Part shown: positions 22,701 through 28,706 of the stretch, piece by piece
Layout: each line of letters starts with the position of its first letter
How positions within the stretch are numbered: position 1 is the first letter of the stretch
UHGV virus genome: UHGV-0060833
Reading direction: 5' to 3' (one strand)
Length of the DNA: 64,000 nucleotides
Source of the DNA: a virus
The notes under the pieces: model-generated
Databases searched by the model: none
The model's input: only the letters and a program-made list of their open reading frames with translations
Told to the model about the DNA's origin: nothing
Translations under genes and position numbers: made by a program

Positions 22701-25700
22701 CTATATTTTTCCGCCTACCCCTTTAAACTTCTCAATAAACGAGACGATTTTCTGGAAAACTGCCTGTTTTTTCGTTTTATATTGCGGATTCAACGGACTA
22801 AGTTTTGGTAATGTTTCGTTTAATTCTGTGCCATTTTCGGTGGCGTATTCGCGTTTTAAAGACGTGCGAATATAGCGTTTTGCTGCTTCTTCATTGAGAT
22901 TTTCTTCTTTTATCAATGCTTCTGCCTCACGTTGCTGTTCGCGTTGAGCAAACGTAAAGAATGCGTCAATGATGCTGGCTTTGTCCGGTAAGTCATCCAG
23001 GTTCGTTTGCTGAATAAAGTCGATCACCAGGCCCTCTTTAGCACGGTTCCCCAGGCTTGAACGAATTAAGCGTTTGACCTCTTCGATCATTTCGCCTTTG
23101 CCTTTATTTTGTCTGTTGTGTTCGAAAATCAGTCCAAGGATATAATCCAGGTTTATTTCCTGAGACTTCAACAAATCGACCTCAAAAACTACGTCATCCC
23201 AGTCAGTGGTTGATTTATCTTTTTTCTCAGCTTCTTTCTCACGGCGCTGCCAGTCACGAATATCGTTATAGGCAGAACGATAATCCTGAATCTTGCGTTC
23301 AGCAGGGAGACGAATCATTTGCAATTCAGCGAACTTTTCATCATCCACATAATGTTCTGCTTTGAATTTTTCTACCGCAACAGGATCGCTAAGATCGATT
23401 TGTTGCAGGGCTTTCAGCGTGGCAAATTCATCATAGTTTTGCAGGATGTTCTCGGCACGCAGGTATTCACCAAACAGTTTAACGAAGTCTTTCTTCTCTT
23501 TTTCACTTTCAATACTGGCAGGGTCAGGGAACCGTTGTTCCAGTTCTGAAACTATTGCCATAAAGCCGCGCTTAGCTTCACCAGTGGCAGCATCAGTAAA
23601 GCCTTCCATATACTCTGCATAACTCTTTTCTAACACCACATTTTTGGTATTTTTATCACCAAACAGCGTTATGGCATCAATGGTTGAGCGTTCCAGATCC
23701 CGGAAAGTGACGATGTTACCGAAGGTTTTAGTAGCGTCATAAATGCGGTTTGTGCGGGAGAATGCCTGCATCAGGCCGTGAAAACGCAAGTTTTTATCGA
23801 CGAATAGCGTGTTCAATGTTGGAGCGTCGAAGCCGGTTAAAAACATCCCAACGACAATTAACAGATCGATATCCTGATTTTTAACCCGTTGGGCTAAATC
23901 ACGATAGTAGTTCTGAAAACCGTTACTGTCGGTGCTGAAGTTAGTTTTAAAATAGCTGTTATACTCACGAATTGCAGCGTCAAGAAACTCTTTAGCACTG
24001 CTGTCCATTGCGCTGGTATCAAAAGTTTCATCGGAAATTTCACCAATGGCATTTTGTTCTTCATTGGCGGCAAAGGAGAAGATTGTTGCAACACGCAGCG
24101 GTTTATAGGTAGCCGATTTATTAGCTGCTTCCTCTTGTAACCGTTTAAACGTCGCGTAATAGGCTTTCGCGGCATCCACGCTACTCACTGCCAGCATGGC
24201 ATTAAAGCCTTTGGAACCTGGGAAAGTACGGTGGGTCTTCTGGCGGAAGTTATTCAGAATATATTGCGTAATTTCCTGTATACGCATGGGATGAAGAAAC
24301 GCCTGCTGATTTTCAGCCGCACTCAGTTTTTTCTCGTCAGTTTCTGTCTCTAAAGACTTAAACTGTGGCCGCACATCGTTGTAGTCCACCTTGAATTTGA
24401 GCACTTTTTCGTCACGAATCGCATCGGTAATTACATACGAATGCAATTCACGACCAAATACGCTGGCGGTTGTTTCTGAGCCTAAGGCGTTTTCCGGGAA
24501 AATAGGGGTGCCGGTAAAACCAAACTGATAATAGCGTTTGAATTTCTTCTTCAGGTTTTTCTGCGCTTCTCCAAACTGGCTGCGGTGGCATTCATCAAAT
24601 ATAAACACCACTTGCTGATTATATACAGGCAGGTCGCTTTCTGCTTTCATCAGGTTATTGAGTTTCTGAATAGTAGTGACGATAATTTTGTTATCGTCCT
24701 TATCCAGATTTCGTTTAAGGCCTGCGGTATTTTCCGAGCCGTTGACGCTGTCTGGCGAAAAACGCTGATATTCCTTCATGGTCTGGTAATCGAGGTCTTT
24801 CCTGTCGACCACGAAGAAGACTTTATCAATAAAGTCCAGCTCTGTTGCCAGACGCGCGGCTTTAAAGCTGGTCAGGGTTTTACCGGAACCCGTGGTGTGC
24901 CAGATATACCCACCGCTTTCCGGTTTTGACCAGTTCTTCGCTGTAAAGGAGCTCTTAATTTTCCACAGAATGCGCTCGGTGGCAGCAATCTGGTACGGTC
25001 GCATCACCAGTAGCGTCTGACTACTGTCAAAAACGCTGTAGTTCACCAGAACATTCAGCAGAGTATGTTTCTGGAAAAAGGTGGCGGTAAAGTCTTTGAG
25101 GTCTTTAATCAGCGTGTTGTCTGATTTCGCCCAATTCATGGTGAAGTCAAAACTGTTTTTATCGCGCTTTGTGGTGTTGGCAAAGTAACGGGTATCGGTG
25201 CCGTTAGAAATGACAAACAGTTGCAGATACTTAAACAGGGAATTTTCGCTGTTAAAACTCTCTTTGCTGTAACGATGTATCTGGTTGAAGGCCTCACGAA
25301 TCGCTACACCGCGTTTTTTCAATTCAATTTGTACCAGCGGCAGGCCATTGACCAGAATGGTGACATCGTAGCGATTGGCGTGAGAGCCTGCCTGTTCAAA
25401 CTGCTGGATAATCTGCACTTTATTGCGCATGAGATTCTTTTTATCTATCAAATAGATGTTCTCAAGACGCCCGTCATCAAAAATAAAGTCGCAAATATAA
25501 TCGATATGGATTTTACGGGTCTTATCCAGAATACCATCACTCGGGTTGTCCAGATACTGCTCCGTGAAACGCCGCCACTCGCTGTCATTAAACACCACAC
25601 CATTGAGGTTCTGAAGCTGTTCCCGAACATTGGCCAGCATCGCTGACTGTGATTTTACGGATATAAATTCATAGCCCTGATTTCGCAGGTCCTGAATCAG

Positions 25701-25817
25701 TTCCCGTTCCAGGTCCGATTCGCTCTGATAGCTGTCGCCTGTTTGCTCAGCTTTGATGTACTTATCAAGAACGATAAAGTTATTGGATTCAGCAATGGTG
25801 TGTGTTTGATGAGTCAT
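22701..25817 (-). CDS. hsdR: Type I restriction enzyme R subunit
   Basis: 1038 aa; SF2 helicase motifs TTGSGKTLT and [10 protein letters not shown]. Confidence 0.9.
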
Positions 25818-25938: not shown

Positions 25939-27147
25939 TTAATTACTGACAGTTTCAGATTTTGGGAAACTGAACAGTAAATCACGATAGTACTCGTATT
26001 GTTTCTGGCGCAACTCGATTTCACGCGGGAGACCTTCGGTGATGGAGTTGGTCAGGGTGTCGAATTTATCGAGCAGAGCAGATATTCGCTCTTGTTTCTG
26101 TTTATCAGGCAATGGCACTGGTAATGTTTTTATAATATCTGCATTCAAGTTACTGACCGACCCGCTATTGATTTTACTTTCCCAATAATTTTTCACCTTT
26201 TTTGATGAAAGATAGTGATACAGATAATCAGTGTTTAATTTTTCACCAAAATTGCTGATTGATGCCCATCCATCATGGATAGCTCCGGTTATCCTTAAAA
26301 TATATGGTCTGCCAAAGCTCATAGAGTTAGAAATGACGAAATCACCAGGGTTCAAGATTCGCGATTTTTGGGCACCCTCTGCAGTTATTTTTTGTAAGGT
26401 TTTGTCAATGTATTTAGAGCCGGGGATAGTATCTCCGATTTTAATCCATGGGATACCATTTCCTTGTTCAGTAAGATAATTAACAATTGGCCTGGGGGAT
26501 GCCCCACGTTGGATTTTGGCTACTTCTCCCAAAGTCTTCCACTCAACCTCACCCTCTTTAAAACTCAACAACTGGTCGCGATAATAGTTGTACTGTTTTT
26601 TACGCATGTTAAGCTCAGCGGTAAGCTCAGCGGTAAGCTCAGCGGTAAGTGCAGTAAATTTATCCAGAATCCGAACGATTTCAGACTGGATGGCAAGGGA
26701 CTTTTCCGGGTTGTCCGGGCTAGGAATGGGAACTTTAAATCCTTCCAGCATGGGTTTTCTTATCGAAATGGCGGTAGCACCCACACTTTTTGTCAAGATG
26801 TACTGCTTAAAGCTAGATGACATGAAGTAATACAAAAACTTCGTGTCTACGGCATTAGTTGTGATACGAATTCTATACGCCCTTTGATGTAGAGCATATT
26901 TTCCCTCAACATAGTGAAATATGTCGCCAATTCCACCTTCACCAGGAATGACTATTGCTACCTCATCAAATTCAAAGGTATCTGACTTCAAGATATTCTT
27001 TGAGCGAACATAGAATGGATAAATTCCATTTTCGCTTTCATCCTGACGATTTGAACTTCCAGTACCGATATCTGCCATAGAACCCAATGTTACCCACTCA
27101 ACCTCAACCCCATCCAACAGTTTTTCCAGATAGCTCAGCTCGCTCAT
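25939..27147 (-). CDS. hsdS: Type I restriction-modification specificity subunit
   Basis: 402 aa with two TRD-like halves separated by a central region containing (TAEL)3; start overlaps hsdM stop. Confidence 0.85.
26612..26647 (-). repeat. Three perfect 12-bp tandem repeats encoding [12 protein letters not shown] in the hsdS central spacer
   Basis: AGCTCAGCGGTA x3 on plus strand (reverse complement ACC GCT GAG CTT), followed by a degenerate fourth unit. Confidence 0.9.
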
Positions 27148-28706
27148 TTCTGCACCTCGCAGCCTTCAATTTCAGCCACAATCGCATCAATATCTTTGCG
27201 CAATTGGTCGATTTTGCTGACGGTGGTTTTCAGTTCGGCATTCAGTTCAGTGATATCTACAACTTCGCGGGTATCTTTGGCTTCCACATAGCTGCTTACC
27301 GACAGGTTATAGTCATTCGCGACAACAGTCTCAAACGCAACAGATTTCGCCAGATGAGCAACATCTTCCTTGCTGGCAAATACCTGCATAATTTTTTCTA
27401 TATGGGCATCGGTCAGGATATTGTTGTTAGTCTCTTTTTTGAACAGTTCGCTGGCGTCAATAAACTGAACGTTGGTATCCGTTTTATGTTTAGACAGAAC
27501 CAGAATGTTTACGGCAATGGTGGTGCCAAAGAACAGGTTCGGTGCCAGTGAAATCACGGTTTCGACATAGTTATTGTCGACCAGATACTGACGGATTTTC
27601 TGCTCCGCGCCGCCACGGTAAAAAATGCCCGGGAAGCAGACAATCGCAGCACGACCTTTGGCAGAAAGATAGTTCAGCGCATGTAATACAAACGCAAAGT
27701 CAGCTTTGGATTTGGGGGCCAGAACGCCAGCCGGGGCAAAACGTTCATCGTTAATCAGCGTCGGGTCATCGCTGCCAATCCATTTCACCGAATACGGCGG
27801 GTTAGAAACGATGGCATCAAACGGTTTTTCATCTCTGAAGTGCGGCTCAGTCAGCGTATTGCCCAGCTTGATATCAAACTTGTCGTAGTTGATGTTGTGC
27901 AAAAACATGTTCATACGCGCCAGGTTATAGGTCGTATGGTTGATTTCCTGACCAAAAAAACCTTCTTCGATGATATGGTTATCAAACTGTTTTTTCGCCT
28001 GCAACAACAGCGAACCGGAACCTGCTGCCGGGTCGTAGATTTTGTTAACGTGGGCCTGGCCGTGCATTGCCAGTTGTGCAATCAGCTTAGAGACGTGCTG
28101 CGGTGTAAAGAACTCGCCGCCTGACTTACCGGCATTCGCGGCATAGTTAGAAATCAGGAACTCATAGGCATCGCCGAACAGGTCAATCTGATGTTCGTTA
28201 AAGTCGCCAAGCTTTAACCCTTCAACCCCTTTCAGAACCGCGGCCAGGCGGGCATTTTTATCCTTAACGGTGTTACCCAGGCGGTTACTGGTGGTATCGA
28301 AATCAGCAAACAAACCTTTGATGTCAGCTTCTGAAGGGTAACCGTAAGCAGAACTTTCGATAGCAACGAAGATGCTGTTTAAATCCGCATTCAGTCTGTC
28401 ATTGGTATTTGCTTTCGCAGCTACGTTGCAGAAAAGCTGACTGGGGTAGATGAAGTAGCCTTTAGTTTTGATGGCATCGTCTTTAATGTCATCAGTAATT
28501 ACGCTGTCATCCAGTTTCGCATAACAGATACTGTCATCACCGGCTTCCATATGGCTGGAAAAATTTTCGCTGATAAAACGGTAGAAAAGTGCGCCCAGAA
28601 CGTATTGCTTAAAATCCCATCCATCGACCGAACCCCTGACATCGTTAGCAATTTGCCAGATTTGACGATGAAGCTCTGCACGTTGTTGAATACTTGTCAT
28701 TTTCAT
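27144..28706 (-). CDS. hsdM: Type I restriction-modification N6-adenine methyltransferase subunit
   Basis: 520 aa; [11 protein letters not shown] (motif I) and [11 protein letters not shown] (NPPY). Confidence 0.9.

Follow-up and report, generated by a model that had tools for sequence, protein, structure and literature searches.

The virus genome UHGV-0060833 of the UHGV collection, a stretch of 64,000 nucleotides (nt) that is called the window below and whose coordinates are used throughout, carries a type I restriction-modification (R-M) operon, hsdM-hsdS-hsdR, next to the phd-doc genes. We put the probability at about 0.9 that this locus, judged by comparison with characterised enzymes, is an intact and almost certainly functional EcoR124-family (type IC) R-M system that a P1-like phage-plasmid carries as accessory cargo. 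Such an arrangement has been described before; it is long established, very common and ordinary.

The hsd operon encodes full-length subunits of the EcoR124 family

An earlier reading of this DNA, made from the letters alone and referred to here as the sequence-only reading, had claimed a complete type I system. We found three intact open reading frames (ORFs) with full-length Pfam and NCBIfam assignments, in the order hsdM-hsdS-hsdR and all on the minus strand, as follows (lengths in amino acids, aa):

22626-28806, minus strand: whole type IC hsd cassette, 6181 bp; P1 homology ends at 22625 and restarts at 28807
27144-28706, minus strand: hsdM, N6-adenine methyltransferase subunit, 520 aa; TIGR00497, N6_Mtase, HsdM_N
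25939-27147, minus strand: hsdS, specificity subunit, 402 aa; two Methylase_S domains
26611-26646, minus strand: TAEL tandem repeats, 3 x 12 bp, within the hsdS central conserved helix
22701-25817, minus strand: hsdR, restriction/translocase subunit, 1038 aa; TIGR00348, EcoR124_C

The hsdM and hsdS genes overlap by 4 nt, and hsdS is separated from hsdR by 121 bp (25818-25938). The PGAP annotation starts hsdM two codons further downstream, giving a protein of 518 aa.

Pfam/NCBIfam profile searches assigned HsdR to TIGR00348 (767 bits), with HSDR_N, SWI2_SNF2, T1R_D3 and EcoR124_C domains, and HsdM to TIGR00497 (646 bits), with N6_Mtase and HsdM_N domains, while a PADLOC scan of the hsd ORFs returned REase_I, MTase_I and Specificity_I. 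When compared with subunits of known structure, HsdR aligned without gaps over residues 1-1038 with EcoR124I HsdR (2w00_A; 2282 bits), and HsdM did so over residues 1-520 with EcoR124 HsdM (7bst_D, from cryo-electron microscopy complexes; 1154 bits). The identity of both proteins to the EcoR124I/II subunits is ~98-99%. The solved chains are 1038 and 520 aa long, exactly the sizes given for EcoR124 in the sequence-only reading. Membership in the type IC (EcoR124) family, proposed then on the basis of these sizes, is borne out by the ungapped HsdR and HsdM alignments, the EcoR124_C domain, the TAEL repeats and the gene order. The type IC family was first delimited by hybridisation, cross-reaction of antibodies and complementation.

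Inactivating lesions in hsdR or hsdM had been named as the finding that would speak against this assignment. Our inspection revealed zero internal stops, and all of the motifs that were checked are kept. In HsdR, these are the PD-(D/E)xK nuclease residues D151, E165 and K167 and the RecB-type Q179 and Y183 (QxxxY), in EcoR124I numbering, as well as SF2 helicase motif I GSGKT (K313) and motif II, the DECH box (408-411). In HsdM, a gamma-class N6-adenine methyltransferase, they are the S-adenosylmethionine (AdoMet) motif I DPAAGSG at 225-231 and the catalytic NPPY at 302-305. These comparisons directly establish the gene content, integrity and family of the locus, and from them we infer that it is active.

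HsdS is predicted to recognise a bipartite site with a 7-bp spacer

HsdS is near-identical to the EcoR124 S subunit (7bst_A) in its N-terminal, central and C-terminal conserved regions, whereas both target recognition domains (TRDs) have diverged. Because both TRDs differ from those of EcoR124I, which read GAA and RTCG, the DNA specificity of the window enzyme is not that of EcoR124I. The central conserved helix, which is the determinant of spacer length, contains three perfect 12-bp TAEL repeats (ACCGCTGAGCTT). Previous studies showed that two TAEL repeats give an N6 spacer (EcoR124I) and three give N7 (EcoR124II, EcoDXXI and EcoprrI), and that engineered hybrids comply with this rule (PMC3874165). 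By inference from this rule, the target is predicted to be a bipartite site with a 7-bp spacer.

The hsdS allele of the window is also present in identical form on NZ_CP122597, NZ_AP027786 and NZ_MK256965. Three other E. coli plasmids (e.g. NZ_CP062860) encode an HsdS that differs from that of the window only in having two TAEL repeats (hsdS at NZ_CP062860.1 301-1497, compared with window 25939-27147). As judged from these alleles, natural variation of the EcoR124I/II type exists for the window HsdS too, and the two-repeat sibling would recognise the same half-sites with one base pair less between them. Both members of this allele pair are found on pig-associated E. coli plasmids of ~93-98 kb.

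On plasmids such as NZ_CP122822 and NZ_CP073625, a different TRD1 is joined to a window-like hsdS segment (nt 417-1209, ~96% identity) that comprises the central region, TRD2 and the C-terminus. A different TRD1 on a shared TRD2 shows directly, at the level of sequence comparison, that type IC alleles reassort their TRDs. No paper, and hence no published recognition motif, was retrieved by a full-text literature search for WP_106108225 (the HsdS with three TAEL repeats) and WP_094316228 (the one with two).

By direct homology to EcoR124I, the two TRDs of HsdS would bind the bipartite target, and two HsdM subunits with HsdS would form an M2S methyltransferase that methylates one adenine per strand. 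At an unmethylated target, HsdR would dock on the M2S core, translocate DNA at the expense of ATP and cut at distant sites, and incoming phage or plasmid DNA without the methylation pattern of the element would be destroyed.

The cassette replaces nine P1 genes between conserved flanks

The sequence-only reading had proposed aligning the window to P1 as a way to define the insertion boundaries. Local alignment with the P1 reference (NC_005856) showed 98% identity up to window position 22625 (P1 84482) and again from 28807 (P1 87969/87970). Between these breaks, which establish the junctions directly, the 6181-bp cassette stands in place of P1 84483-87968 (3486 bp), and nine P1 genes are replaced: pmgT, pmgU, pmgV, upfM, upfN, upfO, hot, lxr and humD. 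The P1 record agrees with the sequence-only reading that hot-lxr-humD occupies this site in P1, and the replacement in fact spans all nine genes, from pmgT to humD. Searches with blastn and tblastn found none of these nine genes elsewhere in the 64-kb window. Synteny with P1 is otherwise extensive, which places the element among the P1-like phage-plasmids (Punavirus): the segments collinear with P1, at 96-98% identity, are 20000-22625, 28807-31500, 35639-39104, 40803-53564 and 55126-62678. The P1-homologous features that border the cassette are the following:

21930-22436, plus strand: pap, P1 acid phosphatase homologue and last P1 gene of the left flank (profile match and P1 record)
22436-22480, plus strand: OpmgT (C1 operator) and predicted PpmgT promoters; P1 annotation mapped through the 98% alignment
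28807-29484, plus strand: P1-homologous right flank with Pphd, phd and doc, 98% identical to P1

On the right side, phd (28883-29104) and doc (29104-29484), which were identified by Pfam (PhdYeFM and Fic/DOC) and TIGR01552 and TIGR01550 matches, diverge from hsdM, with 176 bp between the hsdM start and phd. The Pphd -10 element TATAAT lies at 28846-28851, the Phd/Doc operator palindromes extend to 28873, and the right end of the cassette is 16 nt from the Pphd -35 element. The coordinates thus place the hsd locus directly upstream of the phd-doc promoter and divergent from it, just as had been read from the sequence.

The same two boundaries can be found in the P1 GenBank record itself. Its misc_feature entries describe P1 84263-84482 as 96% identical to DNA downstream of the EcoDXXI hsd locus, 84399-84482 as 98% identical to DNA downstream of R124/3 hsdR, and 87969-88647 (phd-doc) as 98% identical to DNA on the upstream side of the EcoDXXI locus. 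The window cassette is bounded by the very two coordinates, P1 84482 and 87969, at which these homologies terminate. The source for the P1-like flanks of hsd loci is Tyndall et al. (1997), as that work is cited in PMC12707154 and PMC519025.

In a P1 CRISPR interference (CRISPRi) essentiality screen, the replaced genes were all non-essential (PMC10695390); upfM was left out of that screen and is non-essential according to an earlier study cited there (PMC10695390). Phage phi456, in which the same genes are replaced, is able to form plaques on MC1061. Altogether, the non-essential nature of the replaced genes and the plaques of phi456 indicate that the replacement is compatible with phage function.

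Relation to known type IC loci

EcoR124I/II (plasmids R124 and R124/3; PDB 2w00 and 7bst), the type IC archetype, has the same gene order, HsdR and HsdM lengths and HsdS framework as the window locus, and EcoR124II shares its three TAEL repeats. The downstream hsdR flank of the window also has in common with EcoR124 the P1-derived segment corresponding to P1 84399-84482. The hosts differ, an IncFIV conjugative plasmid in the case of EcoR124 and a P1-like phage-plasmid here. EcoDXXI (plasmid pDXX1) is close in its context, because the P1 homology of its flanks ends at exactly both of the window cassette boundaries (P1 84482 and 87969); it likewise has three TAEL repeats, and its TRDs read TCA N7 RTTC. 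EcoprrI, of the prrA-D locus that encodes the PrrC anticodon nuclease, is also type IC and has three TAEL repeats in common with the window HsdS. Unlike that locus, the window has no prrC-like gene, and its 121-bp hsdS-hsdR gap holds no ORF. Tyndall et al. are said to have listed EcoprrI in 1997 among the loci flanked by P1-like DNA.

The P1-like phages vB_EcoM-673R5 (ON470615) and phi456 (OR339795) contain the same cassette with the same junctions, at 96-97% identity. They differ from the window in their TRDs and in having damaged genes, whereas the window copy is intact. In vB_EcoM-673R5 (2790-8741), hsdR is annotated as 'HsdR1' and 'HsdR2' and hsdM is in two pieces, as a result of either decay or sequencing frameshifts. 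In phi456 (7109-8376), an IS5-family transposase gene (Pfam DDE_Tnp_1 and DUF772), labelled 'putative baseplate hub protein' in the record, breaks the N-terminal TRD of hsdS. By analogy with the Tn5-truncated EcoDXXI HsdS, the phi456 half-HsdS might give a palindromic specificity.

The cassette is common on plasmids

Prevalence was established directly by counting. Of the PLSDB plasmids, 258 have the full left junction (pap/OpmgT-hsdR) and 671 have the full right junction (hsdM-phd), while many more have a shorter left flank of the R124/3 type, in which matches begin at window 22542. DNA resembling type IC hsdS is present in 1273 of 5426 complete E. coli genomes. The IncF plasmid pU23 of ST131 carries the module IS1|hsdR-hsdS-hsdM|phd-doc-pdcA. 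E. coli plasmid NZ_CP122597.1, which has the cassette at the same junctions, differs from the window block 22300-29200 by one base in 6901 (99.986% identity), and PGAP already labels all three of its genes type I R-M. Recent surveys of phage-plasmids showed that R-M systems often pass between phage-plasmids and plasmids as cargo (PMC10879196).

The discovery value of the locus is small: it encodes a textbook type IC enzyme, and the identical block is already annotated in RefSeq plasmids. That such a cassette lies between the P1 Op88 region and phd-doc has been in print since 1997, and the P1 GenBank record states it too.

In a separate observation, ~4 kb of the unannotated Klebsiella phage-plasmid vB_KpnS_p4727 (PQ492289.1) matches the cassette, in its hsdR-hsdS portion, at 82% identity. 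On this sequence match, type IC systems also travel on phage-plasmids beyond the E. coli P1 group.

Defence is favoured over plasmid stabilisation

The hsd genes are tightly and recurrently linked to phd-doc in P1-like and IncF plasmids, which raises the question of whether their main role is plasmid stabilisation by post-segregational killing together with phd-doc, rather than defence. As a rule, type I systems are poor at post-segregational killing. R-M systems as a whole have been discussed as poison-antidote elements (PMC10879196), but the restriction alleviation of type IC systems and their harmless establishment in naive cells (PMC12707154, PMC3874165) argue against strong killing on loss. 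Moreover, the linkage to phd-doc is explained equally well by the shared recombination flanks. We consider a primary role in stabilisation unlikely and favour a defence function for the EcoR124-family enzyme.

Expression signals and the case for a silent locus

The intergenic and terminal parts of the cassette, together with the adjoining terminator-like site, are as follows:

28707-28806, minus strand: 100 bp of cassette DNA 5' of hsdM, the presumed carrier of Pmod
25818-25938, minus strand: hsdS-hsdR intergenic region, 121 bp, candidate Pres; hairpin and weak promoter-like site
22626-22700, minus strand: cassette tail past the hsdR stop, 75 bp, with a 13-bp hairpin at 22656-22685
22485-22507, minus strand: intrinsic-terminator-like hairpin, likely the hsdR terminator, within P1-homologous DNA

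The sequence-only reading had described a gap of about 120 bp with a hairpin between hsdS and hsdR, and had taken it to suggest a separate hsdR promoter. The 121-bp gap does contain a hairpin, at 25899-25923, with a 7-bp G+C-rich stem and an 11-nt loop, and the whole gap folds moderately better than shuffled sequences (z -2.4). The sole sigma-70-like match in the gap, TTAACA-N18-TATTTT at 25911-25882, is weak, with its -35-like hexamer inside the hairpin loop. Of four diverged loci, three keep this promoter-like site, and all four share the block GTATATAGACTATTTTTTAC without change. A separate hsdR promoter, the candidate Pres, is plausible on the basis of this pattern. In 1996, Kulik and Bickle reportedly described that in type IC systems hsdMS and hsdR are each transcribed from a promoter of their own (Pmod and Pres, respectively). 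The window locus would likewise have two transcription units. The region expected to contain Pmod is well conserved, with a mean column identity of 97% in the hsdM-phd intergenic alignment across P1-like and IncF loci. We also considered a structural role for the gap hairpin and dropped it, since the four-locus comparison showed only conservation of the stem core, with zero compensatory changes.

At the other end of the operon, the cassette-tail hairpin at 22656-22685 is stable (13 bp, -23.9 kcal/mol, z -3.8) and is not followed by a U-tract, and by these features it is no canonical terminator on either strand. A better candidate lies on the minus strand 194 nt past the hsdR stop, where ACATGCCGCG..CGCGGCATGT can form a hairpin (22507-22485) that is followed by TTTTTATTTT. 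This hairpin has 10 pairs, six of them G-C, and was matched in stability by none of 200 shuffles (z -4.3); its sequence also occurs in P1. We regard it as the likely hsdR terminator.

Several of our results count against a functional enzyme and would fit a locus that is in frame and yet silent or restriction-deficient (r-m+ or r-m-), i.e., a decaying passenger. HsdR differs from that of EcoR124I by ~15 substitutions in the ~970 residues displayed, any of which could in principle impair function. The relatives show decay, with hsdR and hsdM annotated as fragments in vB_EcoM-673R5 and hsdS broken by IS5 in phi456. Furthermore, the scan of 22300-29000 detected no strong promoters and yielded fewer promoter-like sites than shuffled sequence (7 vs 10.9), which makes the single site in the gap weak evidence, and it found no consensus promoter upstream of hsdM, so that Pmod was not located. 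Against a silent or decaying locus, however, the three ORFs are full length with every checked catalytic motif conserved, the ungapped, high-scoring matches of HsdR and HsdM are to biochemically active enzymes, and the identical block has been kept on several independent plasmids. We therefore hold loss of function to be very improbable and retain the reading of an active type IC system.

The cassette most likely moves by homologous recombination

The G+C content of the cassette is 44.1%, compared with 47.7% and 48.7% in the flanks. A search of 22300-29100 found no terminal direct or inverted repeats flanking the cassette, only the TAEL tandem repeat and short matches at chance level. The lower G+C content together with the lack of terminal repeats fits homologous recombination in conserved flanks rather than transposition. 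Most likely, the cassette passes between P1-like elements and IncF plasmids through homologous recombination in the P1 flanks that they share, and phd-doc moves along with it. A recent, unique transposition into this one P1-like element, which the G+C content below that of the flanks (~48%) and the insertion sequence (IS) elements that border the hsd module in some IncF plasmids might suggest, was rejected and is effectively refuted by the P1 alignment (3486 bp were replaced, which is no simple insertion), by the plasmid junction counts (hundreds of plasmids, as well as the classic EcoDXXI and R124/3 loci, have the same junction coordinates), and by the absence of terminal repeats or duplications from the repeat search.

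Retained predicted P1 promoters face hsdR

The window retains the P1 C1 operator OpmgT (ATTGCTCTAATAAATCT, 22436-22452) together with the predicted PpmgT promoters (22436-22480). The operon that the predicted C1-repressed PpmgT promoters served is gone, and they are now oriented antisense toward the 3' end of hsdR. No plus-strand terminator-like site was found between PpmgT and hsdR in the scan of 22300-29000. We considered the possibility that, upon prophage induction, when C1 is inactivated, convergent antisense transcription from PpmgT might turn down hsdR and so shield under-methylated, rapidly replicating phage DNA from self-restriction. This idea is a long shot; speculative as it is, it is the sole lead toward anything new at the hsd locus. 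If it were true, hsd-bearing P1-like elements would have gained a lysis-coupled switch free of charge from the recombination junction.

Just downstream of OpmgT/PpmgT, an unannotated 28-codon ORF (22535-22621, plus strand) encodes the hydrophobic peptide MNTAFKIIMATIYFWLFSITFGGIVAHG and stops 4 nt short of the point at which P1 homology breaks off. P1 is 98% identical over the surrounding DNA and has no ORF annotated at this position; in phi456, an overlapping ORF bears the name Orf75.

A second locus differs from P1

The defence cargo of the element had also been said to differ from that of P1 at two loci, and our alignment confirmed this: besides the hsd cassette in place of pmgT to humD, the type III res/mod genes are absent. 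P1 3469-9749, which encodes them, has no counterpart in the window. This type III system, EcoP1I, is also R-M cargo of the P1 family and differs from the hsd system both in enzyme type and in location (P1 3.5-9.7 kb). Instead of it, the window has 1.7 kb (39105-40802) between the mat and lxc homologues, with two co-directional ORFs:

39195-40235: YaaC-like ORF, 346 aa; Pfam match at 1.5e-45
40235-40744: ORF, 169 aa; weak, sub-threshold match to Nuc_deoxyrib_tr (nucleoside 2-deoxyribosyltransferases) at 1.8e-4

A PADLOC scan of both ORFs at 39105-40802 gave no match. Together, they might form an uncharacterised pair of defence or abortive-infection genes, at a site that is a classic hotspot for R-M systems. 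A further break in P1 synteny lies at 53565-55125, where P1 22506-24245 (IS1 and isaB) is swapped for ~1.56 kb of unrelated sequence.

The practical value of these findings lies in annotation: UHGV-0060833 represents a phage-plasmid without the type III EcoP1I system and with a type IC system instead. This type IC cargo will shape which DNA the lysogen accepts, as well as the methylation of transducing and plasmid DNA that leaves its host.

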